Shown: positions 1,915 through 30,886 of the stretch, one piece after another
Numbering within the stretch: position 1 is the first letter of the stretch
Layout: each line of letters opens with the position of its first letter
Source of the DNA: Candidatus Methanoperedens sp.
GTDB taxonomy: Archaea > Halobacteriota > Methanosarcinia > Methanosarcinales > Methanoperedenaceae
Reading direction: 5' to 3'
Length of the DNA: 32,000 nt
Assembly (NCBI GenBank): GCA_027460535.1
Contig: JAPZAR010000027.1
Location: 240,001-272,000, forward strand
Translations under genes and position numbers: made by a program
Notes under the pieces: model-generated
What the model was told of the DNA's origin: nothing
Databases searched by the model: none
Seen by the model: only the letters and a program-made list of their open reading frames with translations

Positions 1915-2982
1915 ATGTTTCCAAATTTTAAAGCGAAAAACTTGATACTAAAATTTAAAGAAATTTTGAAAAATGAGGTGAGTGACCTTTACCCGGGTTA
2001 TTTTGCCTTTATCATGGCAACCGGCATAGTCTCCATTGCATCTTATTTACAGGGAATGTCTTCGCTGGCCAGGGCACTTTTTTTCATCAATATTTTGGGT
2101 TACGTGGTTTTGTGGATTCTCACTCTGCTTCGCCTCTTCTGGCACTTTCCCAAATTCTTTTCCGATTTAATTTCCCATATCCGCGGCCCGGGATTTTTTA
2201 CACTGGTAGCGGGTACGTGCATTCTTGGGAACGAGTTCGTGCTCATTTCACAGGATTTGACCACTGCATTTTTTCTCCTGATTATCGGAACATTTCTCTG
2301 GCTTATACTGATATACGGGTTCTTTACGGCTGTCATTGTACGGGACTCAAAACCCGATCTGGAAGCAGGGATCCACGGGGGGTGGTTCATTTCTATCGTA
2401 GCTACTCAATCCGTTTCGGTTCTTGGAGCTTTGGTCGCCTCCAGGTTTTTTCCATGGCAGGAATATTTCCTTTTTCTCTCGCTTGGCCTTTTCCTTCTTG
2501 GCTCCATGCTATACATAATTATTATAACTCTTGTCTTCTACAGGCTTACATTCTTTAACCTCACTCCCGAATCATTCATACCTCTTTATTGGGTAGATAT
2601 GGGCGCCGCAGCTATTACCACACTGACGGGAGGGAGGCTTATCCTTGCCTCCGGGAATTGGGCATTTTTGCAGGAAATCCTTCCATTTCTTAAAGGATTT
2701 ACCCTGTTTTTCTGGGCCACAGCAACATGGTGGATACCCCTCCTGTTGATCCTGAGCTCATGGCGCCACCTGTACAAACGGTTCCCCCTGAGCTATGACC
2801 CCCAATACTGGAGCCTTGTATTTCCTCTGGGCATGTACACAGCGAGCACTTACGTATTTGCAGAGGCTACAGGACTGGCGCCGTTATACCTGATTTCCCG
2901 GTATTTCATATACGCGGCTTTACTTGCATGGTTCGTTACTTTTATCGGGATGGTGAGAAGGATTGTGAATGAAATTTATTGA
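1915..2982 (+). CDS. TDT-family (TehA/Mae1/SLAC1-like) C4-dicarboxylate/anion transporter, about 10 TM helices
   Basis: 355-aa, very hydrophobic ORF with about 10 hydrophobic segments. Pattern typical of the tellurite-resistance/dicarboxylate transporter family ([44 protein letters not shown]). I place the start at ATG 1915, 3 nt after the gltA stop, rather than at track start 1879, which overlaps gltA. Confidence 0.7.
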
Positions 2983-3591: not shown

Positions 3592-4176
3592 ATGAACAAA
3601 ACCGAAATAAAATCACGGATTTTTAATGGACTGCTTTTTCCGATACCAGGGGAGTATGCAATTGACCCCATACACAGCTTCACCTGCTTTATTGCACAAC
3701 ATCTTATGGTCGGGCAGATATGGGGATGCTTTGACTCGTTCAAAGGAAAGATCGTGATAGAAGACGATCCAACACTGTCATCTCTTGATATCAGTATTGA
3801 CACAGCGAGTATCAGCACCCACAACCCAAAACGCGATGAGGACATCCGCAGTGCAAGTTTCCTGGACGTGAAGAAATTTCCAACAATGACCTATCACAGC
3901 ACCAGTGCTACAGCTGAACCCGGAGGGCATTTGACGGTTGAAGGTGAACTGACAGTTCGCGATGTCACGAGGCCGGTACCCCTTGATGTAGTTTTTAATG
4001 GCATCGTTGACGATCCCTGGGGCAACACCCGAATTGCTTTCATCGGGAACGCAAAGATTAGCCGTAAAGACTTTGGCCTGATGACCGAATTGAATCGGGA
4101 AACAGGCGGGTTTCTGGTCGGAAAGGATATTATTATTAACATTGCCACTGAACTCCTGCCCCAAACGAACGCATGA
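3592..4176 (+). CDS. YceI-like polyisoprenoid/lipid-binding protein, no signal peptide
   Basis: 194 aa with YceI-family blocks: IDPIHSFTCF, SASFLDVKKFPTMTYHSTS, GELTVRDVTRPVPLDV and KISRKDFGL. The N-terminus is not hydrophobic. Confidence 0.8.
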   Translation: MNKTEIKSRIFNGLLFPIPGEYAIDPIHSFTCFIAQHLMVGQIWGCFDSFKGKIVIEDDPTLSSLDISIDTASISTHNPKRDEDIRSASFLDVKKFPTMTYHSTSATAEPGGHLTVEGELTVRDVTRPVPLDVVFNGIVDDPWGNTRIAFIGNAKISRKDFGLMTELNRETGGFLVGKDIIINIATELLPQTNA

Positions 4177-9528: not shown

Positions 9529-10503
9529 ATGTTCCCGACAACGCGCATGCGAAGATTGCGCTCATCAAAGTTCCGCCCCATTGTGAGGGAGACGCAGCTT
9601 GAAGTCAAGGATTTGATATGCCCTGTTTTTGTGGATGAGACCATAACGGAACCATCTGAAATAAATTCCATGCCTGGCTATTATCGCCTTCCGCTTGATA
9701 TGGTTGCGGATGAGGCTCAATGCATCCTGGATCTGGGAATTCCGTCAATCATCCTTTTTGGCATACCCGGAGAGAAAGACGAGACCGGGACTCATGCCTA
9801 TGGCGAAAATGACGTAATCCAGAAAGCGATCCGTGCCATCAGGAAGGAGGACGGGGAGGATATTATTATTATGACCGACCTGTGCCTGTGCGAATATACA
9901 TCGCATGGTCACTGCGGAGTGGTGAGCGAAACGCATGAGATCCTCAATGACCCCACGCTTGAGATCCTGGGGATGGCCGCAGTGAGCCATGCGAAAGCGG
10001 GCGCGGATATCGTCGCACCTTCCGGAATGATGGACGGCATGGTGGGTGCCATACGCCGTGCACTCGATGGGAATGGTTTCACGAACACGCCCATAATGTC
10101 CTATGCAGCAAAGTACTGCTCTGTATTCTACGGCCCTTTCAGGGAAGCAGCCGGCTCGGGCTTCTCCTTCGGGGACAGGGCATCATACCAGATGGACCCC
10201 GGGAATGCGGATGAGGCAATGCGTGAAGTCGCGCTTGATATCGAAGAAGGCGCAGATATTATCATGGTCAAACCAGCGCTGCCTTACCTGGACATTGTTT
10301 ACCGTGTGAAAAAGAAGTTCAGGATGCCGACTGCGGCCTATCATGTCAGCGGTGAATATTCCATGATAAAAGCCGCCGCTGCGAAGGGCTGGCTGGATGA
10401 GCGAAAGGCTGTGCTTGAGTCGTTGCTGTCCATAAAACGAGCAGGAGCGGATATGATCCTGACGTATTTCGCCAAAGACGCTGCGAAAATGCTTGGTGAA
10501 TAG
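9529..10503 (+). CDS. hemB: Porphobilinogen synthase (delta-aminolevulinate dehydratase), Zn-type
   Basis: 324 aa with canonical MRRLRSSKFRPIVRET, the Cys-rich Zn site DLCLCEYTSHGHCG, the active-site Lys blocks IMVKPALPYLDI and SGEYSM, and YFA near the C-terminus. Confidence 0.97.
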   Translation: MFPTTRMRRLRSSKFRPIVRETQLEVKDLICPVFVDETITEPSEINSMPGYYRLPLDMVADEAQCILDLGIPSIILFGIPGEKDETGTHAYGENDVIQKAIRAIRKEDGEDIIIMTDLCLCEYTSHGHCGVVSETHEILNDPTLEILGMAAVSHAKAGADIVAPSGMMDGMVGAIRRALDGNGFTNTPIMSYAAKYCSVFYGPFREAAGSGFSFGDRASYQMDPGNADEAMREVALDIEEGADIIMVKPALPYLDIVYRVKKKFRMPTAAYHVSGEYSMIKAAAAKGWLDERKAVLESLLSIKRAGADMILTYFAKDAAKMLGE

Positions 10504-12571: not shown

Positions 12572-13405
12572 ATGCAAATCCGTGAATATGCCGGAAAATT
12601 GAGCGATTCAAGGCCTTTTCTGTTGGTCATTTCTGTGGTTGTGGGCATTGTTCTATTCAATATATTCATCGGGATCCCAAAAGTGGGAATAATCACACTC
12701 AACACTCCATTCATGGCGGAAGATACAAAGAGCGATATAGTCAGTATGCTGAAGTACGCGGGGGACGATCCTTCTATTAAAGCCGTAGTTATTAACATGG
12801 ATTCTCCGGGGGGCGAAGTTTCTAAGATCGAGGAAATATATCTTGAGACCCTGAAATTAAGGGCAAAGAAACCAGTTGTGGTCTCTGTGGACAGCAGCGC
12901 ATTGTCCGGAGGATATTATATTTCATCTGCGGCAAACTTCATCTATGTCAAACCGTCATCGGAGATAGGCAACATTGGCGTAATTTCGACATTGCCTGAG
13001 CCCTGGAAACCCGACAGTGTGCAAATAACCACAGGCCCATTCAAGATATCAGGAAAGTCCCAGAAAGATTATACTGCCCAGGTGGAGACCATAAAACAAG
13101 GATTCCTGATGGCGGTGATATCGCAGCGCGGGGATAAACTGCACGTTGATTCGGAGCGCTTATCCCGCGCCGAGATATTCCTCGGATCTGAGGGAGTAAA
13201 ATACGGCCTCGCTGATTCGCTTGGAACAGGGTCAGACGCAATCCGGAAAGCCGCAAGCATGGCAGGCATCGCAAATTACGATACCCTGAACATAAACAAG
13301 GCTATGAACATCTCTTTCAGCGGGAATTTCCACGGTCTTGCCGGACTGAATAAAACCGTAACTCCTGTTAATTACTACATATATGAGGAGACAGAGGAGT
13401 CATGA
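12572..13405 (+). CDS. sppA: Signal peptide peptidase SppA (S49 family, 36K type), N-terminal TM anchor
   Basis: 277 aa. TM segment PFLLVISVVVGIVLFNIFIG, followed by S49 blocks VVINMDSPGGEV and ALSGGYYISSAANFIYV. Confidence 0.85.
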   Translation: MQIREYAGKLSDSRPFLLVISVVVGIVLFNIFIGIPKVGIITLNTPFMAEDTKSDIVSMLKYAGDDPSIKAVVINMDSPGGEVSKIEEIYLETLKLRAKKPVVVSVDSSALSGGYYISSAANFIYVKPSSEIGNIGVISTLPEPWKPDSVQITTGPFKISGKSQKDYTAQVETIKQGFLMAVISQRGDKLHVDSERLSRAEIFLGSEGVKYGLADSLGTGSDAIRKAASMAGIANYDTLNINKAMNISFSGNFHGLAGLNKTVTPVNYYIYEETEES

Positions 13406-17326: not shown

Positions 17327-17462
17327 TGTTATAAACTCGTCATGAATTGTAATCGTTCAAAAAGAGCGAGCCGTGCAGTGGATTATGGTGGTAATAACGG
17401 TAACTAATAACATACTCAGTGGGCGTAAGCTTAAGAATAAGGGTGATGGCAATATTATGCGC

Positions 17463-17520
17463 GGGGCTGGGGCGCGGGATGGGTATGCGGGGGGCTGAGA
17501 TGATGGGAGGAAATAAGGGG
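17463..17520 (+). promoter_or_regulatory. G-run cluster (potential G-quadruplex) on the coding strand just upstream of the likely start of the giant gene
   Basis: Read directly: GGGG ct GGGG cgc GGG at GGG tatgc GGGGGG ... GGG agg ... GGGG, ending 3 nt before ATG 17524. The first five runs satisfy G3+ with loops of 1-7 nt. Confidence 0.5.
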
Positions 17521-17523
17521 TCG

Positions 17524-20500
17524 ATGAAATTAAGTTTGAAGTTAATGATATCTAAAAATTATAGGAAAATCGTAACTAAAAGATTTCCTAAAATAATATA
17601 TATTTTATTTTTGATATTTACGATTATTCTATTAAGTTCTGGAAATGCCTACGGTTATGACTGGCCTATTAAGAATGCTCATCCAATAACTGCTGTTCTT
17701 GGAGAGTATAGGACTGGACCTCCTAAACATTTGCATACGGGAATTGATATTGGAGGAGCTGAAGGTACAGAAGTATATTCTGTAGAAACTGGCAAAGTTA
17801 CAAAAGTATCGATTAGTGCTGATAAAAACTCATATATCACAATAGGCAATTTCAAATATCAACATATTAAAGAATATATTTATAAAGATTTTGTAGAGGT
17901 TTTATCGGATGGAAGTGAAGAGGAATATCATATTGGAACATCGATAAAAATACAAACTGATTCGAGTCATAAAAATGACGTGGAAATTGTAGCCGCTAAT
18001 TCTGGATTACTCAAAAAAGGTTTACCAACTCTCTATGAATCAGATAAGATTTTTTATGTTCCAATTACTCAACCTATTGCAGTAACCAGAGATTATCCAG
18101 ATTCAAATGGAAATCTGGGCACCTCGGCAGGAGATCATCTACATTTTGAAGAAAACGAAGGGGGATTAAATCCATTAAGGATTGGGGGATTACAATCTTT
18201 TTCAGATACTTCAAAACCCAAAATCAATAATATTGAGATAGTAGAACAAGGGAGTGGTAATGCTCTTGGAAATTCAATTTATGGCAAAGTTGACATCAAA
18301 GCAGATGCTAAGGACTCAATTAGTGGAGGCAGTCAAACAGTGGGTGTTTACAAGATTGGATATCTTATTCAGAATTCCAATACATATCAAATCAATCAGG
18401 ATTGGACATACAATATTGAATTTGATAAAATATCTGGTTATAACCTTGATTTAATTTATGATAGTGGATCTACTAGTTCTAAATATATTTATTGGGTAAC
18501 AAACACTCCTTATGAAAACAAATTTTGGAATACAAAGCAAAAATTGAGCGGAAGCGAAACGGATGATGCCCAAAATAATCAGGAAGCTAAGTTTCCTGAT
18601 GACGTCTATTGGATATGGGTAGATGCACGGGATATAAGTGGGAAGGATGATGTAGATAATATCGAAAAAAGAGTGGATAACTTTCCACCTCAAATAAAAA
18701 ATACATATCCAGATTCAAATGAAATCAATGTTCCTGTTGATGCAGATATTAAAATAACATTTGATGAAGAAATGGATAAAAATTCGATATCTCTATCAAT
18801 TTCTCCCAACATTGCTGGAACTTTCAGTTGGAGCAATAATAATAGAAATCTGGTTTTCGAACCAACTGTAGAACTCCGACCAGCAACTGAGTATACTGTG
18901 AAAGTGGATGGCAAGGATACTGTGAGTAAAAGTATTGATGGGGATAAGAATGGAAACGAAGGTCCATCATATGAGTTTAAATTTAAAACCTCTACCTGTA
19001 CAATAAAAATAGACCATCCATTTTATAATATTCCAGATGGTCAAACTCAGACTCATCATATAAAAGTTAAAAATGAAGGGATTCCTTCAGCAAAACTGCC
19101 CATAACTCTTAGTACAGTCATCAATAATGCCGGTCAATGGACTGTAATTGACGGAGTTAATGGTCAGCAAGTAAACATTCCTATCGGTCAAGAATCCCAA
19201 GAATATCCTATCGTTGTAACAAACAATGGAGCATCGCACGACCTTGATATGACAATCAAAGGAGATGCCAACGGCTTCTCATGCACATATGAATTATACG
19301 ATGGAACCCCTGCCACTGACCACATCGCCGACCACCCCGACGACAGCTTCATAATCTCCGGTTCCAACTACCCCACACCCTGGCTTGTTGACACCGAATC
19401 CAGCACAGGCATCCTCAAGACCGGATGGGGAGAGGGAATGGGTCATGTGCTGGGCAAATATAACATCAGCACTGCCATTGTCAAACCAGATCTCACAATC
19501 CTTAATGAGCCATACCGCGAGCTTAATGATCTCAAAGTGCTGCTCGTCGGCTCAGCAGGTCTCACCGGTCTTGATAGTTCTCCAACTTTCAGGAAGAAGC
19601 TTGCAGACTTTGTCGATAACGGAGGCACGCTTGTAGCGCTTACGAGCCAGAACGGATATGAGTTCAATGCGCTGCCGGGCGGGGAGGTTTCGGGATATGG
19701 GTGGAACGAGGATCAGAGCTGTCAATACCAGTCGGTTTCTCTGAACACTTATCATTCTGTACTCTCTGGTCAGGAATCAACCACGCCGAGCATCAACATT
19801 GATGGTTACTTCACAAAATGGCCTAATAATTCCAAAATACTGCTCACAAGAACTAAAAACGGTATGCCTGCAATGATAATGTACGACTATGGAAGAGGGC
19901 ATGTCGTTGCGTCAGCAATGTATGATGATTGGGCATATGGCACATCAGGAGCCACAAATGATGGAATGAATCTTATCAGGGACGTTGTGACCTGGGCGAA
20001 AAATCCTGTGGAACTTGTAGATTATGCGCCTTCTGACATGGTTAACATAACTGTAAATGTTACAAATAGATTGGATTCAAATGTCAGCAATGTGAGCTTG
20101 AGATTGATCGATCCTGAAAGAAAATTTGTCGGGACAGTCAATGCTTCTGTTTTTATAGCATCATGGGATACCGTGCCTGTTAACTTCACCTACATTGCGC
20201 CTTCTAAACTTGGAATTTACACTATCGATTACTTGCTGAGCAATGAATCAGGAGCGATGGTGCAGGAAGAATTTGACGCAGCCAGCTTTTCAGTTTCAAA
20301 ATTCAAATCCAATCCATCCGGCTTTACGAATCAGGGCAGTAAACTCCAGATATGGGCAAATGCGCCTGAAAAAGCTGCAAAAGGGTCTGAGATATTATTC
20401 CGCATATATGTGCGAAATGATGAAGAAACTGAATTCAAAGGAAATATCGCTATAGGCGGTCATGAACAGGGAGGTCTCTTCTGGAGATATTACACCGCAT

Positions 20501-23500
20501 TGCGCGACATTTCAGTACCTCCTCATTCTGTTGGGGAGTTTACCTATACATATGATATCATGTTGTCCACGAGCTTTTATTTCGGGCTTTACAGGCAGGG
20601 CGCTAACTATGAAAACCAGTGGTTCCATTCAGGTTCAATTGCATCGAGTGAAAAAGGAGTATGGGTTTTTAATCCGCTTGTTGATGTTGAATTGCGAACT
20701 GATATGAGCCAGTACGGGAAAGGAGATGAGGTTTTTATATTTTCAGACTTCATTAATAAGCAAGGCTCTGATTATAACTTATCTGCCAATTTCAAGATTC
20801 TTGATCCGGATAATAGTATTATTTTTGAAAATACTACTGATTTGAACCTTTCCTCATATGAAACAAAATCATTATATTTTAATTATTCTCTTCCAAATAA
20901 ATCAAAATCAGGTTTTCATGTGATAAACGTTGAGGTCTTCAGGAATAACGAAAAGATCGGATACGGCTCAACATATTTTGAGGTTGGATCTGCTTATTTA
21001 AAAATTAATATTTCAAAGCCTGAGATGATAGTTCCAGGGGCAATCAACACCTTTTTCTTCAATATAACCAACATTGGATTAGGAAATGCATCTGATAGCA
21101 GGCTGAATATAACATTATTGAATCCTGCTGGAAATGCTATTTTCAGCAACAGCACGTTTCTCAATATTTCGATAAATCAGAGCGTCATATACTCCATAGA
21201 TGTTCCTGTGAATGAAATTGACTTCGGGAAATATGTATTAAAATACTCGTTGAATCAAGAAAAACTGGACATAAAAGGTGAAATACCTCTGCAAAATTCC
21301 GACATCATTACACTTAATTTCGATAAGCCATCTTATCGAATAAGAGATGATCTCGGTGCAGTTTTAAGCATAGTTAATAAAGGGTTATTTTACCAGAATC
21401 TTTCCGTGAACATCTCGATACCTGATGCCAATTTCTCAAAAAATGAATCGTTCGAAATTCAGCCGGGCAAGACTTTAACAAATGATCTAAATCTGACACT
21501 GCCAGATAATTTAACACTTGGAAACTATCCTGTAAATGTCACACTTGCCCTCAATAATACATTCTCTAAAGCCTTCACTTTTAATATACCTGAGTCTAAC
21601 CTGAAAGCATCGTTTGAAGTCCTCAATGTGTCCGCAGGAGAAAACTTGAGCGTAAACATAGAGAATACCGGAGGCGTGGATACTACTGTAAATTATACTC
21701 TTACTTTGAATGGAAATGGCTACTACAACTCTACAAACGGCAGTATCACGGTTTTGGCAAATGTTTCAAGTAATGTTAATTTACCACTTCATTCGGGTCT
21801 GAAAAATGGAAACTATATCTTTGCTTTGACTTATAAGAATTCAAGAACCGGAACATGGGATTACTTGAAAAAACAGGTGCATGTAAATGGGGTTGAAGGA
21901 GATGTAAAAGTCTCAAATGATCGAAGAATTTATTTAACTGATAATGTTATTGAGTCACTTTCAAATCTTACAAATCTCAATAAGACTAACATTAATGGTA
22001 CGCTGAATCTCAGGATATATTCTCCTGATAAAATAGTTACTCCAATCCCATATTCAGCATCCGCTGACATCGGACTCAACAAGAATTTCATAGTACAAGT
22101 TGATAATGACACATTGAGTAGCGGTTGGTATTATCGCAATTTTAATTATCATATTTATATGAACAATATCGACGATTCCAGCGACACAATTCTGTCTGGT
22201 CTCAGGTTCAGCGTGCGAGCAGATAATATTACGAATGTCGGATCGCAGCAGTATGCAACATGGAATGAGACATCAGTGGACTGGATATTTCCTCCTGACC
22301 AAGTCATACAGGAAAACGATGGTTTTAGCACGGGTTTTGATGTTAATTATCCAGAATCGAAATACTTGAATGTCAACATGGGTAGATGGATGAACCAGAC
22401 AGAATTTAGTTCAACTGGCTATCAGCTTGCGATGTTTAATGTTACTTTTGAGGATACTGACTTTATGTGGGTTAATGGTAATATCTGGCCCGGAGTCGGT
22501 TGGGGAGTAAATGCATCTATTGTTCCCGGTACATTCATCACTGATGCCCCTGTACGCAACGTCGTTGAAAGGGAAAATAATGTCATGATTGAGTTCGATA
22601 AACAACGAATCGAAACTGGAGTTACATACAACTTCTCCGTTATCATTAGAGTAGAGCCTCCAAACGAGAGGACAGTAGTATTCTATAAACCATCATTCAA
22701 TATCGATATGGGTTATTCCCATGTCAATGTACCCGGAGGATTGGGATTTACTGCAGAAATACCTTCTTCTATGCTTCCAGAGCATGTAAGTTCTATTTCT
22801 GCATCAACAAACATCTTTAATTCGTGGCAGAGTATATGGGTCAATGACTACGAAGTTATCGGATGGCTCAATAGTGTTGCAAGAACAACAACAATAGGAA
22901 CAAGTCTCCCCAATACGGATCATGAAACTGTGAGATCTACGTACTATGGATCGACATCAACCCCAACACTCACCGCCGCGCTCTCCAACTCCGGTGGCAG
23001 TACCTGGCAGTTTTATGCAGATATAACGATAAACAACACAGGCGGTGCGTTGAGCGCTTACCAGGTGCCAGTTAGTCTCAACGGCAGCAGTTTCCCAACA
23101 AATGTGCAGAACAGCGGCGCAGACATCAGGTTCACAGATGCAAACGGTGCTGAGTTGAGCTACTGGATTGAAAGCTGGGATTATGCAAACAAACGCGCCA
23201 AAATCTGGGTGAATGTCACGAGCATACCTGCGAGTGGAAGCACGACCATAAGAATGTGGTATGAGAATCCAGTCGCAACGAGTTCAAGTAATGGAAAAGC
23301 CACATTTGTGTTTTTTGATGATTTCGAGAATGGTAATCTGAATGATACATGGGTTTCAGGTGATATATGTGATGGCAATACAATAACTGTCGAGCAAGGA
23401 AGAGTTAAATCAACAAGCAATTGTGATTTTATAGAGACTTTACAACAGTTTTCAGGAAATCTGGCAGTAACAGTAGATGTTGAAAAAGTTTCAATCGCGA

Positions 23501-26500
23501 ATAGTGGGTGCTGGGACTTTCATCTCAAATGGAATGGTAATAATGCACAAGGTGCGTTAAGATTCGATCAAGATGGAGTTGATGGAATAAGTATTGGTAA
23601 TAACTGTGGGAATGAATATAATATTCCTGCCTCTAATCCAAACAAAGGAAATATAACTTTATTTGCAGAAGGGGGGAACTATAAATTCAAATACACTGAC
23701 TTAAATGGCGTTTCATTGGTCACAGACGATTATCCAGCAAGTTCATACTTAGGAAAGTTAAAAATAGACCTTGCAGGATATGAATCTGCGCCCCGCTATG
23801 TAGATAATGTCAGGATTCGTAAATATACCTCACATGAACCGACATTACCAGGCGAATACTCAACGGCAGAACCTACTTATACACCCCTCCCAACACCACC
23901 AGCGGACGTTTGGATACAAAATCCTGCGAACGAGCACTATTATAAAATAATAACGTCCATGAATTGGTCAGAAGCAGAAGCCCAGGCAGTGACATGGGGA
24001 GGGCATCTTGTTACTATAAATGACAGAGAAGAGGAATTATGGTTGAAAAATCAGTTTGGAGAGGAGGATTTTTGGATAGGGTTTAATGACATACAGGGAG
24101 AGGGGAATTGGGAATGGGTTAGCGGAGAACCTGTAACTTATACAAACTGGGCTCAAGGAGAGCCAAACAATAATGGAGTAGGAGAAAATGCCGCAGTTAT
24201 GAACTGGGGTACAGACGGAGATAGCTGGAATGATTTACCAGAAGAAGGCAATAGTCGAGGTATTGTTGAAAGAATTACAGTTCCCCCCAGTACAAATCCA
24301 AACCAAAGTTATTTCGTCTGGAATACCACCATCCCCGTTGACATCCCACCTGAAGGCATGACCATTCCGGTAAGTGTAAATATTGCTTCAGCTTTGAATA
24401 AAACCACTGGCAGGCTTGTGCTGGAGGCAGTGCTATATTCTAATTCCAGCCAGGTATTAAGCTCTTCCAATTACACTTTTTACGTATTCGATACAAATAC
24501 CACAATATCGCTTGAAACAGATAAAGAAGTTTATAGACCCGGGGAATCTGTGGTTATCAGCGGGGAGATCAAGAACTGGGCAGATGCTCCTACATCCAAT
24601 CTAAATTTTGTGCTGGATGCCGATGGTAATGAACTTCTCACTGAAACTTTCCTGCTCGCTGCTGGGGAAACAAGAAGTTTCAGTTCGGTTTATTCCTCTA
24701 ATACTTCATTTAATATCAATGCAGGCATTGGTGATATTAAAATATCCCAGCCTGTTGAGGTTGAAGCGCCTCTTCTTGTGGTTAACATCACTTCGCCAGA
24801 TGTCGCTGGCAGAGGGGAATTTATTGTTGCCGCTCTCCTTGAGAATCCCGGCAAACTGGTCATTAATGAGACTCTGGACGTTGAAGGAAATATCTACAAT
24901 GTAAGCATTCATGGAGGAGAGAGTAAACTAATAGAAACTCCTTTTATTATAAACAAGAATAAAACAATCAACATAACTTTGCTTGGCGATGTTGATCTCA
25001 CACTTTCCCGATTCGTAATATTCGGGGAAAATGCAAGCCTGAAGGTATCACCAGAAATATATTCCCCTGGACATTTTGAGGTGCCTTACAATATTGAGAA
25101 TACTGGCAGTTTGGAGACAGAGTTCAATGCAAACTTCAGCCTTGAAGATAAAATAATTGAAAAAGCAGTATATCTTCCTGTGGGTGGAAACTTCTCAGGA
25201 AGCCTGATTTTTAATCTTTCTGAAGGCAATTATATTTTAAATTATACAACGCCCTTCGAGACAGGAAACGTCAGCTTTAGAGTTGCAAAGATGGATATTG
25301 CAGGAATGAATGCTACGATTCCTGAGAAGGCAATCGGGAATATTCTTGCTGTTGTGGTTAATGTCTCTAATATGGGTGCCAACAACTTTACAGGAAATAT
25401 TGAGATAGACACAGGCTTTTATTCAAATAATAGTTTATTGGTCCTCAATGTCAGTGAGAAACGAAGTCTGATTTTAAAAGTTCCAACATTAATCCCGGGC
25501 GTGTTCAATGCTACTGTAAGACTGCTTCACAATGGCAATATCATAGAGGAAAAAGTTGGAGAGTTTGAAGTTCTCGGCCCTGAATTTACAGTAACAAGCG
25601 CGCCCACAAACCTGAACTACAGGCTTGGGGAGAATGTAACTATGAGCTTTGGTGTTTTAAACACCGGAGGTATGGAAGGTACAGCAGGACTCAACCTGAC
25701 TATCCCGGGCATCTACGAGAATAACAATAATTCCTGGGTCGCGCCCGGTGAAGTGAAGAACTTGAGCTTTAGCTTCATCCTGCCTGAAGACCTTGAAGAA
25801 AAGAGCTACAAATTCTTATATGGCTTTAACGGTGACATGCAGGAAGGAAGCTTCTTTGTCAAGGGCGCCAGCATTTCGGTTGAAGCTGCGCTTGATAAGC
25901 CTTTTTATAACGAAGGCGATACTGCGGTTTTAACATTACCTGTTAAGAACAACCAGGACTTTGACTTGCCTTTATTCTCCAGAGTGAAATTCAATGACTA
26001 TGATAATATCACCTATTTCAAGCTCTCAGGCTCAGGCAGCGAGACTTTGACCTTTAATGTTCCCGTTCATTTCACTGGAGATAAGATATTCTACAGCGTT
26101 TACATGGCTTCGGGAAGATCTCTCTATATCAATTCCATGTATGCCTATGAAAAGCCAAAAGATGACAGCGGTATAACCCTTTATACAGACAAGCAGGTAT
26201 ACTTAACAGGTGAAACTGTAAATGTGTTTGTCAACGTCACCGGAGACGGTACATTAAACATGACAGCACCGGGCTTCAGTACCACAAGGTCATTGACAGC
26301 AGGCGATTCTACAGTAATTAGCTTTACCCTGCCTGAGCTTAAGTCTGGCACATACTACATCGAATATACATTTGGAAACTTCTCTTCATCCTATCCATTT
26401 GATGTTGACGGCTATTCAGCAAAGATACTTGAGTTCACTCTGGATAAAGAAATCTATGATATCGGCGATACCATGAACATGAAAATGCTTGTGGATGCGA

Positions 26501-27531
26501 ACAAGGACTTCGCAGGCACTGTAAAGATGTGGGTGTATGGCAATAGCGCTGAGGACAGCTTTGAGTTCAGCAGGGAATTTGTAAAAGGTGAGAACAGGGT
26601 AGAGGTTAACAGGACTTTAAATACAAGCTGGTCTGGCATTCACTCAGTAGCATATGGTGTGTATGCCGATATACCAGGTCATTCTCTTGTACTCCTCGCC
26701 TCTGGAGAAGAGTACTTTGATGTAGTGGATCATGTGCCTCCTTTGATCACAATAACCTCGCCTCAGAATATTGAATACACAACGAGTTCAGTACCTCTGA
26801 TCTTTAGCATAGAAGATACAAGCGATATAGAGTGGACAGGTTATAGCCTGGACGGCGCAGAGAATGTAACGATCAGCGGAAGTAGTCTATTAACAGACCT
26901 GACAAACGGCAACCATAGACTAATTGTATATGCAATGGACTCGGCGGGAAATACAGGTTCAGCATCGACTGACTTCATAATTGGTAGCACACTGCCAAAA
27001 GAGGCGCATGCAGAAGCGGTCATCATGTTCGACACGGCATCGAAGGATATCAATGTGTATAACAACGGAACTGGAAGCGAGGTAAGCTACGTCATATTGC
27101 CATCGAAGAAAGAAAAGAATGATAAGAAAGAACAGGATAAGGCCGATGATAAAGGCTGGGAACTGAGACAGTATACGCTCAAAGATATTTCCGATAACTC
27201 GCTTGTGCTTGTTTTAAAACACAAGACGGAGGGAAAGGAAACAAAGATCGAAATCGTCAGCATGCAGTACAACAGCGAAGCAATAATCGAGACAGCAAAG
27301 AATACGATACAGGCTCAGTACTCTGAAGAGAAGAATGGCATGTTCAAGGAATTGGAGCAGAAGATCGAAGTCGATAAACTCCTGAAAGCTGAGACAAAGT
27401 ACAATGCCAAGAAAGATGAAACGGAAATAAAGGTGAAAATGGAGGGAGAGAAAGAGCAGAAAGAAAACAGGGCAGGCAATGTGATATTGGAGTTGTTTAC
27501 TGAAAATGGTATCTTAAAGCTCAGATACTAG
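17524..27531 (+). CDS. Giant (about 3335 aa) N-terminally anchored/secreted multidomain surface protein: M23 peptidase, Ig-like (Big_5), GATase1-like, CARDB-like arrays, DUF2341 plus LamG-like, C-type lectin, C-terminal Ig-like and Lys/Glu-rich tail
   Basis: A single uninterrupted 10-kb ORF. Start placed at ATG 17524 ([44 protein letters not shown]: basic n-region plus a hydrophobic core). The 35 upstream codons from GTG 17419 are Gly/Arg/Met-rich and encoded by the G-run cluster. Domain evidence is given in the sub-features below. Confidence 0.9.
   Translation: [3335 protein letters not shown]
17650..18200 (+). other. Domain: M23 (LytM/lysostaphin-type) zinc metallopeptidase
   Basis: HxxxD motif [10 protein letters not shown] (His at 17734) and HxH motif [10 protein letters not shown] (18133-18150), with the usual GxxVxAxxxGxV strand ([15 protein letters not shown]) between them. 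Confidence 0.8.
18685..18990 (+). other. Domain: SbsA/Big_5-type Ig-like domain
   Basis: [35 protein letters not shown]...[13 protein letters not shown] is the typical Big_5 pattern: P-x-V/I-x-x-x-x-P, then I-x-I-x-F-x-E-x-M/V, then T-x-Y-x-V. Confidence 0.65.
19531..20000 (+). other. Domain: GATase1-like / DUF4350-like module
   Basis: [40 protein letters not shown] ... [14 protein letters not shown] ... [10 protein letters not shown]. The layout matches that of the 13402-14268 protein. Confidence 0.4.
20001..22100 (+). repeat. Array of diverged CARDB-like beta-sandwich modules (first block)
   Basis: A recurring [VI]-x-N-x-G signature about every 100-120 aa ([31 protein letters not shown]). 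An earlier instance, [10 protein letters not shown], lies at about 19060. The repeats are at protein level only; I saw no DNA-level repeats. Confidence 0.55.
23005..23830 (+). other. Domains: DUF2341 followed by a LamG/concanavalin-like lectin fold
   Basis: [25 protein letters not shown]...[51 protein letters not shown] is a near-textbook DUF2341 pattern. The following [17 protein letters not shown]...VDNVRIRKY is typical of Laminin_G_3-type domains. Confidence 0.75.
23911..24270 (+). other. Domain: C-type lectin-like domain with Ca/sugar-site motifs EPN and WND
   Basis: [45 protein letters not shown]...[34 protein letters not shown]...WNDL. EPN is at 24160-24168 and WND at 24226-24234. The WIGL/F-D and W-x-W blocks are present. 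Confidence 0.8.
24300..26730 (+). repeat. Array of diverged CARDB-like beta-sandwich modules (second block)
   Basis: Recurring x-N-x-G signatures: [40 protein letters not shown]. Also repeated 'TDKxVYxxGExV' module starts: [59 protein letters not shown]. Confidence 0.55.
26736..26985 (+). other. Domain: C-terminal Ig-like module
   Basis: [48 protein letters not shown]...[20 protein letters not shown] is a pattern common in archaeal and bacterial cell-surface Ig-like repeats. Confidence 0.5.
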
Positions 27532-28449: not shown

Positions 28450-29373
28450 ATGAATAAACAGGACGTCTGCATATTAATTCCCGCCCTTAACGAGGGAAAA
28501 GCAATAGGTGGGTTGGTCACAGAATTCAAATCCATGGGTTTTTCTGATATCCTGGTCATCGACGGTCACAGCACCGATAATACCGCAAAGAACGCGGAAA
28601 GCGCAGGTGCCAGGGTGATAATACAGAGCGGCACCGGAAAAGGACAGGCTGTGAGCCAGGCGTTCCAGTCCATCACCAGTAAATATATCGTAATGATCGA
28701 TGGCGACGGGACGTATCTTCCGGAAGAGATTTATAAGCTTCTAGAACCCGTTACCACGGGCATTGCAGATCACGTTATAGGGAACAGGTTCGCGAATTAC
28801 CAGAAAGGTGCATTCACCCGCTTGAACCTTTTCGGGAACAAGATATTGAACAAGATATTCGGATTTGCATACGGTGTCTGGCTTCAAGATATACTTTCAG
28901 GTTACAGGGCGTTCAAAGGCAAAGCTGTCAAACAGATCGAACTGAACAGGACAGGGTTCGAGGTCGAAACGGAAATTACGGTCGAGTGTGTAAAAAAAGA
29001 TATAAGAACGATCGAAGTCCCGATAACCTATCTGGCAAGAACCAGCGGGGCGGCGACAAAGCTCAAACCTTTAAGGGACGGCTTCAGGATAGCATCAACT
29101 ATATACCTGCTCGCAAAGACGCACAATCCCCTTTTTTATTTTAACATTATTGGTGCATTCTTATTGATCATCGGCGTGGCCGTTGGTATCTATGTCGTGG
29201 ATGAATGGCTCAGAGACATAACTCATATACCCCTGACCATCCTTGCCACGCTTCTCATTGTGATAGGGATCCAGATGTTCATTTTCGCAATCCTGAGCGA
29301 CCTGATCGTTTCTGTGCACAAAGAGAACATGCATATGATGCGCAAGGTCCTGAAGGAAAAGGAGAATTTATGA
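28450..29373 (+). CDS. Family 2 glycosyltransferase (dolichyl/polyprenyl-phosphate sugar synthase-like) with two C-terminal TM helices
   Basis: 307 aa with CILIPALNEGKAIG, IDGHSTDNT and the DxD motif VMIDGDGTY. The C-terminal hydrophobic segments are FNIIGAFLLIIGVAVGIYVV and LTILATLLIVIGIQMFIFAILSDLIV. Confidence 0.85.
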   Translation: MNKQDVCILIPALNEGKAIGGLVTEFKSMGFSDILVIDGHSTDNTAKNAESAGARVIIQSGTGKGQAVSQAFQSITSKYIVMIDGDGTYLPEEIYKLLEPVTTGIADHVIGNRFANYQKGAFTRLNLFGNKILNKIFGFAYGVWLQDILSGYRAFKGKAVKQIELNRTGFEVETEITVECVKKDIRTIEVPITYLARTSGAATKLKPLRDGFRIASTIYLLAKTHNPLFYFNIIGAFLLIIGVAVGIYVVDEWLRDITHIPLTILATLLIVIGIQMFIFAILSDLIVSVHKENMHMMRKVLKEKENL

Positions 29374-30026
29374 AAATAGCAATACTGGGAGGCACAGGCA
29401 GCATCGGGGAGGGATTTGCACTCCGGTGGGCGGAAAAACACGACATATCGTTATGTTCGCGTGAAGTCGACAGGGCCGTCAGCGCAGCGAGTGAGTATAC
29501 CGACACGCTTTTGAGCAAAAGTATGGTTTGCTGCGGAATTACCGGATGCACGAACGAGGTAGGAATTAAGGATGTGGATGTTGTTGTGCTTTCCGTGCCG
29601 TATCATGGCGTAATAGACCTCTTGAAAAATCTCAAGCCTTATTTTAAAGACCAGATCGTGATCTCACTGGTGGTACCCATGAAAAAGAACCGCTGGTTTG
29701 AATACACGCCACCTAAGCAGGGAAGCGCGGCCCTTGAGATCAAAGACATTCTTCCCGCGAGCGTGAAAGTGGTTTCAGCATACCATAATGTATCCGCGAA
29801 GAAGCTGGCAAATATCGAATTGAGCCTTGATTATGATGTCGTGGTATGCGGGGATGATGAAGATGCAAAGAGCACTGTGATGGAACTGACAAAGGAGATC
29901 AAGAACCTGCGCCCCCTGGACGGCGGAGGCCTTTCTTCGTCTTACATGATCGAGTCCCTGACGCCTTTTTTGATTAACCTCGCGATCAGGAACCACCTCT
30001 CCGATCTTGGCGTAAAGTTCATATGA
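29370..30026 (+). CDS. fno: F420H2:NADP+ oxidoreductase / NADPH-dependent F420 reductase
   Basis: 218 aa from ATG 29370 (MKIAILGGTGSIGEGFALRWA, a Rossmann GxGxxG). The overall pattern is that of archaeal Fno/NpdG. The ATG overlaps the GT2 stop (ATGA). Track start 29205 lies inside the GT2 gene. Confidence 0.85.
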   Translation: MKIAILGGTGSIGEGFALRWAEKHDISLCSREVDRAVSAASEYTDTLLSKSMVCCGITGCTNEVGIKDVDVVVLSVPYHGVIDLLKNLKPYFKDQIVISLVVPMKKNRWFEYTPPKQGSAALEIKDILPASVKVVSAYHNVSAKKLANIELSLDYDVVVCGDDEDAKSTVMELTKEIKNLRPLDGGGLSSSYMIESLTPFLINLAIRNHLSDLGVKFI

Positions 30027-30051
30027 AAAACTTTAGGAAAGTTTTATCAAA
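30022..30051 (+). repeat. Direct repeat A, copy 1 (30 bp, exact)
   Basis: tatgaaaaactttaggaaagttttatcaaa. Contains the hairpin aaacttt-agg-aaagttt and the fno stop codon. Confidence 0.95.
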
Positions 30052-30106
30052 TGAAGGGGATGTTTCACATCCCCTATACGTCATAAAGGGGCGTAACCCT
30101 TTATGA
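30023..30106 (+). CDS. Unannotated small ORF 1 (27 aa), translationally coupled on both sides
   Basis: Hand translation: MKNFRKVLSNEGDVSHPLYVIKGRNPL. The ATG overlaps the fno stop (ATGA at 30023-30026). Its TGA (30104-30106) overlaps the next ATG (30103). It is below the 60-aa cutoff of the ORF track and is made entirely of repeat/hairpin DNA, so its coding status is uncertain. Confidence 0.35.
   Translation: MKNFRKVLSNEGDVSHPLYVIKGRNPL
30053..30092 (+). repeat. Direct repeat B, copy 1 (40 bp, exact)
   Basis: gaaggggatgtttcacatcccctatacgtcataaaggggc. Contains the hairpin ggggatgt-ttc-acatcccc. It is extended by ataaaggg-gcgtaa-ccctttat. Confidence 0.95.
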
Positions 30107-30131
30107 AAAACTTTAGGAAAGTTTTATCAAA
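30102..30131 (+). repeat. Direct repeat A, copy 2 (30 bp, exact), followed by a degenerate third unit
   Basis: Identical 30-mer located 80 bp downstream of copy 1. It is followed directly by the related unit aaacctttgaaaaaggtttatcaaa (30131-30155), which has its own hairpin. Confidence 0.95.
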
Positions 30132-30255
30132 AACCTTTGAAAAAGGTTTATCAAACGACGGGTATGGCACGCCATACCCGGACACGCCCTCCCGAGGCGT
30201 GACTCGGGAAGGGGATGTTTCACATCCCCTATACGTCATAAAGGGGCCTTTATGA
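30103..30255 (+). CDS. Unannotated small ORF 2 (50 aa), a paralogue of small ORF 1 with internal insertions
   Basis: Hand translation: MKNFRKVLSKTFEKGLSNDGYGTPYPDTPSRGVTREGDVSHPLYVIKGPL. It has the same first 9 residues as sORF1 and shares the 13-residue C-terminal block EGDVSHPLYVIKG. Its TGA (30253-30255) overlaps ATG 30252 of the next gene. Confidence 0.35.
   Translation: MKNFRKVLSKTFEKGLSNDGYGTPYPDTPSRGVTREGDVSHPLYVIKGPL
30159..30180. repeat. Perfect palindrome with 10-bp arms: cgggtatggc-ac-gccatacccg
   Basis: Read directly. It lies in the segment unique to sORF2. It is followed by two mutually exclusive hairpins, cacgcc/ggcgtg (30183-30201) and tcccgag/ctcggga (30190-30209). Confidence 0.9.
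30208..30247 (+). repeat. Direct repeat B, copy 2 (40 bp, exact)
   Basis: Identical 40-mer located 155 bp downstream of copy 1. Both copies end a few nt before a ...ctttATGA junction. Confidence 0.95.
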
Positions 30256-30851
30256 TAGATATATATAATAAATTACTTGACAAACTCGGTCCTAAGAACT
30301 GGTGGCCGGCTGAAACTCCTTTTGAAGTGGTCTTAGGCGCCATACTTACACAGCAGACAAAGTGGGAGAACGTCGAGAGGGCGATTAAGAATTTAAAGGA
30401 TAGAGGGCTTCTCGAAGCTGAATCCCTCTCCAGGATTGAATCAGGAGAACTGGAAGAACTTGTCAGGTGCACGGGATTTTACAGGCAGAAGGCAAGAAGG
30501 TTGAAGGATATTTCAGCATTTTTTTCGGAGAATCCCGATATACTCCGAAAACCGAAAGATGAACTCAGGGATGTTCTCCTTGCATTGAACGGCATTGGAG
30601 AAGAGACGGCGGACAGTATCATTTTGTATGCTGCAGACAAGCCGAAATTCGTTATCGATGCATACACAAAGAGGTTATGCAGGTGCGTGGGAGTTGAAGG
30701 CGATTATATGAAATTGCAATCCATATTTGAAAATTCCATCCCGCAGGAAGTTCCCCTGTACAAGGAATTCCACGCCCTCATAGTCGAGTACGGAAAGCAG
30801 TTCTGCGGGAAAAAACGATGTGATGAGTGCATATTTGATGAACCCGTCTAA
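30252..30851 (+). CDS. HhH-GPD superfamily protein, endonuclease III-related (COG2231-like)
   Basis: 199 aa with AILTQQTKWENVERAIKNL, the helix-hairpin-helix LNGIGEETADSIILYA, the Asp block FVIDAYTKRL, and a C-terminal Cys cluster CGKKRCDEC. Confidence 0.8.
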   Translation: MIDIYNKLLDKLGPKNWWPAETPFEVVLGAILTQQTKWENVERAIKNLKDRGLLEAESLSRIESGELEELVRCTGFYRQKARRLKDISAFFSENPDILRKPKDELRDVLLALNGIGEETADSIILYAADKPKFVIDAYTKRLCRCVGVEGDYMKLQSIFENSIPQEVPLYKEFHALIVEYGKQFCGKKRCDECIFDEPV

Positions 30852-30886
30852 AAAGGATTGAAATATTATTGGGTAACCGGTAGAAA

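Follow-up and report, generated by a model that had tools for sequence, protein, structure and literature searches.

The spacer between the fno-like and HhH-GPD genes in a stretch of 32,000 nucleotides from Candidatus Methanoperedens sp. (assembly GCA_027460535.1, contig JAPZAR010000027.1; the whole stretch is referred to here as the window) consists of two tandem copies of a dispersed repeat, one of them canonical, with a period of 80 nt, and the other longer, of 149 nt. The interpretation that we consider likely is that these are copies of a small, non-autonomous hairpin repeat that targets the tetranucleotide ATGA, that they were inserted where the two genes overlap, and that ribosomes would be relayed through them into the downstream gene. 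The element is restricted to a subset of Ca. Methanoperedens and appears to be unreported, no description of it having turned up in literature searches aimed at it. Two small open reading frames (ORFs) in the spacer had been proposed by the first-pass annotation to be either real small proteins, duplicated and diversifying, or a frame kept open to preserve translational coupling; on the present interpretation the peptides are by-products read from each regenerated ATG, without a function of their own.

The Spacer between fno and HhH-GPD

The features of the locus, in window coordinates, are the following.

29370-30026, forward strand: fno-like gene, F420-dependent NADP oxidoreductase (PF03807, by Pfam on the identical locus L001), with its stop codon TGA inside the 5' ATGA
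30023-30106, forward strand: unit 1, a canonical copy of the element, 84 nt with both ATGAs (80-nt period), corresponding to the 27-residue ORF; 108.9 bits with the covariance model R1
30103-30255, forward strand: unit 2, a copy of intermediate length, 153 nt with both ATGAs (149-nt period), enlarged internally by additional hairpins and corresponding to the 50-residue ORF
30252-30851, forward strand: HhH-GPD (endonuclease III-like) gene, whose ATG belongs to the 3' ATGA of the array
30019-30239, reverse strand: mirror ORFs at 30081-30239 (52 residues) and 30019-30084 (21 residues)

The description of the two ORFs as chained by ATGA overlaps into HhH-GPD is correct in its coordinates and translations (30023-30106, 27 residues, MKNFRKVLSNEGDVSHPLYVIKGRNPL; 30103-30255, 50 residues, MKNFRKVLSKTFEKGLSNDGYGTPYPDTPSRGVTREGDVSHPLYVIKGPL; both on the forward strand), and the ATG-to-ATG distances of 80 and then 149 nt along the spacer, both 2 mod 3, were reproduced. 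ATGA occurs at 30023, 30103, and 30252, the fno stop codon being the TGA at 30024-30026 and position 30252 being the start of HhH-GPD. The sequence that the two ORFs were said to have in common consists of exact repeats, an A repeat of 29 nt at 30023 and 30103 and a B repeat of 40 nt at 30053 and 30208, none of which is expected by chance as judged from shuffled sequence. The matching public assembly has no gene called in the spacer. Because the spacer sequence is palindromic, the same DNA can also be read on the minus strand, as mirror ORFs of 52 and 21 residues.

The HhH-GPD protein is 100% identical on contigs of the Candidatus Methanoperedens metagenome-assembled genome (MAG) GCA_027460495.1 and in two other assemblies. 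The same 225-nt spacer is present in two of these, whereas L002 (a Logan assembly of the same strain) has a single 74-nt unit at 9927-10003 in place of the 229-nt array at 30023-30255 of the window. L002 equals the window minus exactly 155 nt between the two 40-nt B repeats, and the difference represents either a repeat-mediated deletion allele or a k-mer assembly collapse.

Hairpins and Base Pairing

Nine short hairpins, all perfect, follow one another along the entire spacer; the RNA fold of 30003-30275 has an energy of -110.3 kcal/mol as compared with -61.9 kcal/mol in shuffled sequences (z = -10.3). The canonical element, of 80 nt (84 nt when both ATGAs are counted), has three hairpins in the consensus layout ATGA - AAAACTTT-NNN-AAAGTTTT - ATCAAA-NN-A - AGGGG-(4 bp + 3-nt loop + 4 bp)-CCCCT - ATACG - TCATAAAGGG-GCGTAA-CCCTTTATGA. 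In the window the hairpins are located as follows.

30027-30045, forward strand: hairpin 1, AAAACTTT-AGG-AAAGTTTT
30055-30075, forward strand: hairpin 2, AGGGGATGT-TTC-ACATCCCCT, -13.4 kcal/mol
30081-30106, forward strand: hairpin 3, TCATAAAGGG-GCGTAA-CCCTTTATGA, -14 kcal/mol, with the next ATG paired in its stem
30107-30149, forward strand: unit 2, a copy of hairpin 1 (30107-30125) and then a covarying second copy, AAACCTTT-GAA-AAAGGTTT (30131-30149)
30159-30212, forward strand: unit 2, internal modules of the long form, hairpin CGGGTATGGC/GCCATACCCG (30159-30180) and hairpin CCCTCCCGAG/CTCGGGAAGG (30187-30212)
30210-30255, forward strand: unit 2, hairpin 2 repeated at 30210-30230, then hairpin 3 in shortened form, TCATAAAGG-GG-CCTTTATGA (30236-30255), -6.2 kcal/mol

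Hairpins 1 and 3 are terminal, and both borders are involved in pairing: hairpin 1 is lengthened by TGA/TCA pairing, which places the 5' ATGA in its stem as well, and the shortened hairpin 3 of unit 2 holds the HhH-GPD start codon. Hairpin 3 also supplies a stop in each of the three frames (TCA TAA, GCG TAA, and TTA TGA). The AAAGGGG run ahead of the next ATG, which had been described as resembling a Shine-Dalgarno (SD) sequence, is present, but it belongs to a hairpin, forming the 5' arm, and that same ATG lies in the 3' arm. Comparison of the ends (AAAACTTTAGG... and ...GCGTAACCCTTT) revealed no terminal inverted repeats for any choice of border. A search of the window against Rfam 15 gave no match at the gathering thresholds, the best sub-threshold score being 22 bits against a cut-off of 81.

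Among 22 distinct copies, 99% of the cells in the three stems are paired, and the changes that have occurred in the stems altered both sides in 46 cells and one side only in none. The outer GGGG/CCCC of hairpin 2 is constant, but its loop and inner 4 bp differ among copies through compensatory changes, each of the four inner pairs being UA, AU, CG, or GC depending on the copy; hairpin 1 shows one A-U to C-G swap. The covariation score is 0.19, compared with 0.038 in shuffles (0 of 500 reach 0.19) and with values of 0.07 or less for slid partners. Read as peptide, the variation of hairpin 2 gives unrelated residues (DVSH, DVAR, VSQI, VCAI, DIKY, and VLKE), and outside the paired Watson-Crick swaps all codon positions are invariant. 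Selection thus acts on pairing rather than on the peptide. The absence of G-U intermediates fits a constraint on both strands, as in DNA hairpins, or a strict requirement for Watson-Crick pairs, and is compatible with constraint on DNA as well as on RNA. A guide-like role for the variable part of hairpin 2 was considered and rejected, comparison with the flanking target DNA giving only one 5-nt match at the level of chance.

Insertion at ATGA

The element adds 80 nt at an ATGA and leaves ATGA at both borders. Insertion at a fixed ATGA is indicated by three comparisons of filled and empty sites, in fno/HhH-GPD, a UDP-sugar dehydrogenase gene, and a glycosyltransferase (GT2) gene, together with the restoration of one ORF, that of an IS110-family transposase. 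In five Methanoperedens contigs (L044-L049) the operon GT2-fno-HhH-GPD-radical SAM is kept, and the fno stop and HhH-GPD start lie on a single ATGA with no element; model R1 detected no copy in four of those empty-site loci (about 82 kb). The dehydrogenase gene is continuous in L050 and L051 (GCATTG ATGA ATGAACTGG) and filled in L013 and L018 (GCATTG ATGA[76 nt]ATGA ATGAACTGG), with the Pfam central domain spanning the insertion junction. For GT2, an intact paralog on L010 has an empty ATGA, and fragments on the same contig are filled. In the transposase gene (L037 506-589 and L043 3820-3903) the insertion is close to the 3' end and out of frame, the reading frame from upstream terminates in the loop of hairpin 1, and deletion of exactly 80 nt restores a complete ORF. 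It should be noted that a 4-bp target duplication and an element-borne terminal ATGA would give the same sequence, with ATGA on both sides. At the locus in the window, the element would have entered the ATGA at which the fno stop overlapped the HhH-GPD start, in such a way that fno keeps its TGA and HhH-GPD its ATG.

Several further observations concern the interrupted genes. The split dehydrogenase is located at 2563-2646 of L013 and 1730-1813 of L018 and is also found in L021, L024, and L030, with both halves intact; in the filled lineages the N-terminal half is predicted to end in the tail KNFKKVLSKQGVCAIPLYVIKGRNPL (KNFKKVLS...GRNPL), if the split protein is made. A repeated segment of about 0.6 kb, composed of the 5' part of GT2, the element, and about 130 nt more, is present on many contigs, including L010 (213, 1675-1914, and 5745, with the empty site at 3940), L012, L019, L020, L023, L026, L029, L032, L033, and L038-L040. 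It breaks off after "...CAMLGMNDPL" and is followed by unrelated DNA; it looks like the duplicated gene fragments that border inserted cassettes.

Distribution and Forms of the Element

In the window and 43 loci taken together, the core motif of the element was counted 51 times. Four further Methanoperedens MAGs were identified when genomes were scanned with the B hairpin, three of which carry the element at the fno/HhH-GPD junction in short or long form; in L007 it is located elsewhere, at a junction upstream of a UbiA-family gene. Scanning of metagenomes with the 21-nt core added 36 contigs, some with two or three copies, and neither a scan of viral contigs nor BLAST of the array against plasmids and phages matched any copy. 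There are 23 distinct canonical copies of 84 nt, together with five variants of 83 nt and one of 85 nt, all bounded by ATGA, which forms the 5' border of every complete copy. Longer forms, of 104-236 nt, have extra hairpin modules inserted between hairpins 1 and 2, and those related to unit 2 are found in L005, L006, L010, L052, and L053. Tandem arrays are frequent, as expected if each copy offers new ATGAs for the next insertion. Most potential targets are unoccupied, as judged from empty ATGAs in the window itself: the GT2 gene (28450-29373) overlaps fno through an unoccupied ATGA at 29370-29373, only 650 nt upstream of the filled one, and a second, plausible ATGA overlap is present at 13402.

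Some loci differ in the form or the surroundings of the element. At 2160-2221 (reverse strand) of L011 there is a related repeat with the same hairpin 1 and linker, hairpin 2 in a GGGC/GCCC version, and a different 3' hairpin (TAAACTGA..TTTCAGTTTA), which has no ATGA borders and lies in a spacer full of CACGGAT repeats. In L014, L028, and L035, as compared with L017 and L034, a PF09824 ArsR-like gene with the element is followed by a helix-turn-helix (HTH) gene in some contigs and by a dihydrodipicolinate synthase (DHDPS) gene in another, and in L034 the 3' end of HhH-GPD, copies of the element, and DHDPS are joined; recombination between copies may reshuffle gene neighborhoods. The fno junction in L022 (1065-1148, corresponding to 30023-30106 of the window) has a different linker and hairpin 2 variant (AC + TATC-GCA-GATA), which is identical at unrelated loci in L010 and L016, suggesting that it was replaced by conversion or re-insertion.

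With respect to the neighborhood of the array, an ORF of 3370 codons upstream in the same direction (17419-27531) has Big_5, DUF2341, and lectin C-type domains (Pfam, identical locus), and its product is probably a giant surface protein. Downstream, HhH-GPD is separated from the radical-SAM gene by 35 nt (30852-30886); in the element-free lineages L044-L049 the called coordinates of these two genes overlap by 14-53 nt.

Reading Frames of the Element

The proposal that the ORFs encode real paralogous small proteins, coupled translationally within the operon, is supported by the open, ATGA-chained frames of both and by the presence of related ORFs of 52-90 residues among the gene calls of public assemblies, for which a 54-residue concatenate was one of the queries, but the homologous copies are in conflict with it. 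The first-pass annotation had named stops or frameshifts in such copies as grounds for refutation, and both are present. The periods of different copies are distributed among 2 mod 3 (80, 74, 149, 236, 104, 212, and 191), 0 mod 3 (156, 81, and 129), and 1 mod 3 (106), and all three reading frames are in use. In L006, L007, L010, and L027 the ORF from the 5' ATG enters the B part in another frame and ends at the TAA in the loop of hairpin 3, with 6 nt remaining to the ATG; the corresponding ORF in the second unit of L028 ends at TCA TAA, and the ATG that lies 19 nt farther on starts an intact gene; and the ORF stops after only 17 codons in L033 and L040 and after 4 in L019. Public gene calls of 36-122 residues read the same hairpin modules in different frames (e.g., GYAKHTPT as opposed to GMQSIPQH). 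The variable positions alter both sides of base pairs and so cause radical residue changes, and copies also occur inside genes, out of frame, or antisense. In a profile search of 1.84 billion representative proteins, only 30 matches were found, 29 being short ORFs of 36-122 residues and one a weak match to a protein of 731 residues; no Pfam domains were detected. Neither a preserved frame or length class, nor constraint at the level of amino acids, nor an asymmetry between the coding strand and its complement was found, one minus-strand frame of the canonical element being entirely free of stops.

The open frame is not significant in itself. Of about 12 non-canonical forms, taken from the DNA search, 5 are in the ATGA-chaining frame as compared with 4 expected by chance, and the freedom from stops of about 11 hairpin 2 variants has a probability of about 0.2. 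There is therefore no support for selection on the open frame, and the small-protein proposal is already largely refuted; we regard it as extremely improbable. Its removal as a false lead means that the spacer ORFs are not new small proteins, and the element explains the tiny "hypothetical genes" (52-90 residues) that are annotated inside Methanoperedens operons.

Position of Copies and the Proposed Relay

The element occupies about 17 independent sites, and in about 13 of them its 3' ATG is the start of the downstream ORF. About nine or ten are stop/start overlaps, namely fno/HhH-GPD, GvpK/GvpL, rmlA-like/rmlC-like, PF09824 ArsR-like/HTH, the same ArsR-like gene/DHDPS, MarC/pterin-binding, DUF1616/Rce1-like, a 771-codon ORF and the next ORF, and others. 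In L036 the element is at the start of FlpD, preceded by a strong SD sequence (GGAGGTGA), and in L027 it is at a promoter-proximal start. Two sites are in-frame internal Met codons (GT2 and the UDP-sugar dehydrogenase), one is out of frame (the transposase gene), and one is antisense (L025/L042). Stop/start overlaps account for only 2-4 of the 367 ATGA tetranucleotides in the window, and the bias of the element for start codons is therefore very large. Targeting and survival could each give rise to it; survival is favored by the fact that the copies found out of frame or antisense are in dispensable DNA. The tetranucleotide that the element targets is thus the one by which operon genes are coupled, and almost all surviving copies provide, with their 3' ATG, the start codon of a gene.

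These positions suggest how insertion might be tolerated. Signals that once acted on the ATG of the gene (an overlapping TGA, an SD sequence, or a leaderless 5' end) would now act on the 5' ATG of the element, and the true ATG would be left 80 nt downstream, without an accessible SD sequence and paired in hairpin 3. Ribosomes starting at the 5' ATG would translate the element, melting its hairpins, including hairpin 3, would terminate on the true start or at most 19 nt upstream of it, and would then reinitiate, and by this relay expression of the downstream gene would survive the insertion. The ATG frame of the canonical element has no stop before the terminal TGA, whereas one of the remaining frames is closed by the 5' TGA and the other within the loop of hairpin 1. 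The three junctions in the array are all ATGA stop/start overlaps, as are the empty orthologous sites, and in the window the relay would run three times in a row (fno, ORF1, ORF2, HhH-GPD), which would probably lower expression of HhH-GPD. The suggestion that the frame is open to keep downstream translation coupled is plausible in that it fits the location of copies on start codons; the copies do not, however, all preserve strict chaining from ATGA to ATGA. Where sites are filled, the flanking HhH-GPD and fno genes have ratios of nonsynonymous to synonymous divergence (omega) of 0.04-0.12, and this purifying selection indicates that the downstream gene is presumably still expressed. Passage through the 80 nt by -1 or +1 frameshifting was ruled out, every frame having a stop in or at hairpin 3 and two of them also at the 5' end.

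Conservation of the Element and Alternative Explanations

At orthologous sites the element is conserved to a greater extent than its surroundings. The copies in the window and L004 are identical at 83 of 84 positions, as compared with 92 and 91 of 120 in the two flanks, although synonymous sites between these loci are saturated (proportion of synonymous differences, 0.68-0.77). For L014 and L028 the values are 82 of 84 in the element and 97 of 120 in the flank, and for L013 and L018 they are 84 of 84, with 107 and 114 of 120 in the flanks and a gene-wide synonymous divergence (dS) of 0.41. The conservation extends to loops and linkers. One variant of hairpin 2, ATGT-TTC-ACAT, is common to the window, L004, L005, and L006 and is seen only at the fno site, which argues for inheritance and constraint as opposed to re-insertion. 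The split dehydrogenase has an omega of 0.11 between two filled, mutually closest lineages (dS 0.41), the same value as in uninterrupted homologs; should the insertion be ancestral, selection continues to act on the split gene. Many of the filled GT2 copies are truncated or frameshifted fragments, the intact paralog being the empty one.

Several points weigh against the interpretation of the array as an inserted ATGA-targeting repeat with a ribosome relay. A search of 364 kb by tblastn with an approximate IS608 TnpA query revealed neither a transposase nor a parent element that has these ends, and the two terminal hairpins differ from each other and contain the ATGAs inside their stems, unlike the characterized ends of IS200/IS605 elements. 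The relay is something that we infer from the sequence, and the open frame on which it would depend is statistically unremarkable, one frame of the minus strand being just as open. A purely selfish element, moreover, leaves unexplained both the 83/84 identity between the window and L004, where the flanks are only 76-77% identical and synonymous sites are saturated, and the omega of 0.11 in a dehydrogenase that is split within a domain. Both the almost complete identity of copies at orthologous sites and the selection on the split dehydrogenase are genuinely puzzling, and they leave room for a recognition element that is used by the host or, less likely, for removal of the element at the level of RNA or the ribosome. 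The broader alternative that the element is either removed or skipped between its AUGA borders at one of those levels, or maintained by the host as a translation-control cassette with a dedicated factor, is improbable in our estimation; if true, it would account for the omega of the dehydrogenase, for the approximately 99% conservation of the element, including its loops, and for its placement on start codons.

Of the more specific alternatives, a cis element that is recognized in a sequence-specific manner by the host in mRNA or DNA, perhaps as the place where a trans-acting protein binds or processes it, was spread by transposition, and is now selected for an effect on translation start, mRNA stability, or cleavage in many operons is unlikely but deserves some weight. 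Such a function would be consistent with the extreme conservation at orthologous sites, loops and linkers included (83/84 as opposed to 76-77% in the flanks, and 82/84 as opposed to 81%), with the sharing of the fno-only hairpin 2 variant by four lineages with saturated dS, and with placement on start codons, but the adjacent genes have no functional theme, copies are present in a transposase gene, in decayed GT2 fragments, and in antisense orientation, related lineages lack the element at the same junction, and there is no match in Rfam. Excision of the element in the manner of an intron, or its bypass by the ribosome between the two AUGs, with intact proteins still produced from the interrupted genes, would explain how a dehydrogenase interrupted in its central domain can have the omega of its uninterrupted homologs, and the identical AUGA borders of this ultraconserved element resemble matched take-off and landing sites. 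However, the codon that follows the 5' AUG is an ordinary AAA and not a stop, the conserved sequence permits no bulge-helix-bulge geometry on inspection and has no counterpart among ribozyme or intron families, the transposase gene with its out-of-frame copy and the frameshifted or truncated GT2 copies, as opposed to the empty intact paralog, look like plain disruption, and the bias to in-frame ATG sites favors restart over excision; this alternative is very unlikely. The archaeal TATA consensus is TTTATATA, and promoters are known from small repeats of other kinds, such as the Correia elements. The sequence GGAAAG-TTTTATCAA in hairpin 1 was also considered as a transcription factor B recognition element and TATA box of a mobile promoter that drives the downstream gene. 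Although TTTATCAA matches this consensus at 6 of 8 positions and is about 55 nt upstream of the 3' ATG, hairpin 3 would, in a transcript initiated internally, continue to sequester both the start codon and the single SD-like run, and a promoter would leave the covarying hairpins and the ATGA borders unexplained; we hold this to be highly improbable.

Certain known RNA classes were also examined as candidates and rejected. For an archaeal bulge-helix-bulge intron, ATGA, as the end of the 5' exon, has a single complement (TCAT), at a distance of 22 nt from the 3' border, and on inspection all stems are perfect hairpins free of bulges. For a C/D-box or H/ACA small RNA or a hammerhead-like core, inspection revealed no motif that is conserved across copies, and nothing was found in Rfam.

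Relation to Known Elements

The element is closest to the palindrome-associated transposable elements (PATEs) or to REP-like elements. PATEs lack terminal inverted repeats, have near-terminal palindromes and a targeting sequence of 4-6 nt, and can be as short as 52 bp, and they undergo core deletions mediated by repeats (PMC3119063). The present element resembles PATEs and the terminal-only IS200/IS605 remnants of haloarchaea in being too short for a protein (80-236 nt, less than a transposase gene requires), in the absence of terminal inverted repeats, and in the palindromes at or near both ends. Further features common to it and PATEs are a fixed integration sequence (4-6 nt in PATEs and ATGA here), the existence of very short versions (52 bp in PATEs) beside longer ones, and loss of the core between repeated palindromes, to which the 155-nt difference between the window and L002 may be compared, whether it is a deletion or a k-mer collapse. 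Unlike PATEs, it has end hairpins that are unlike each other, a survival that is strongly biased to start codons, and a target tetranucleotide that is paired inside the terminal stems and present at both borders. By loose analogy with IS200/IS605-type (PATE-like) elements, it is probably mobilized by an enzyme that recognizes the hairpins and a tetranucleotide target. A miniature inverted-repeat transposable element was rejected as a classification because there are no terminal inverted repeats.

Repetitive extragenic palindromic (REP) sequences, bacterial interspersed mosaic elements, and REPINs are short conserved palindromes between operon genes that are often clustered, maintain their hairpins, and have a family master sequence that is conserved over long periods. 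The element shares with them its intergenic palindromes in operons, its clusters, the retention of hairpins, and long-term conservation, but REPs are located after stop codons in true spacers, regenerate no stop/start overlap, and have no ORF running through them. The Rickettsia palindromic elements and the enterobacterial RU/ERIC (enterobacterial repetitive intergenic consensus) repeats occur inside ORFs (PMC2759123) and are likewise small palindromic mobile repeats in coding genes that can be read as peptide; however, they insert in frame, as multiples of 3, and join the protein, whereas the 80 nt added here end the upstream frame, offer a restart, and split the gene. Elements involved in translational bypass (T4 gene 60 and the mitochondrial "byps") are also short, hairpin-rich inserts in coding sequence with identical border codons, but here the take-off codon is followed by neither a stop nor an unusable codon, the insertions favor positions that are capable of restart, and there is no evidence of bypass.

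Termination-reinitiation at ATGA overlaps is strictly coupling in Haloferax and Escherichia coli (Huber et al. 2019, PMC6728339), and what is proposed here is similar in that a ribosome ending at UGA would restart at the overlapping AUG. The proposal also resembles coupling through a short upstream ORF, as in the iraD leader (PMC5574718), in that a short ORF would hand ribosomes to a start buried in structure. If the relay works in this way, the element would be a transposon that keeps the translation of an operon going after inserting into it and would provide a ready-made, portable coupling cassette. It would differ from the known cases of coupling in that the relay ORF would come from a mobile insertion and could be chained up to three times.

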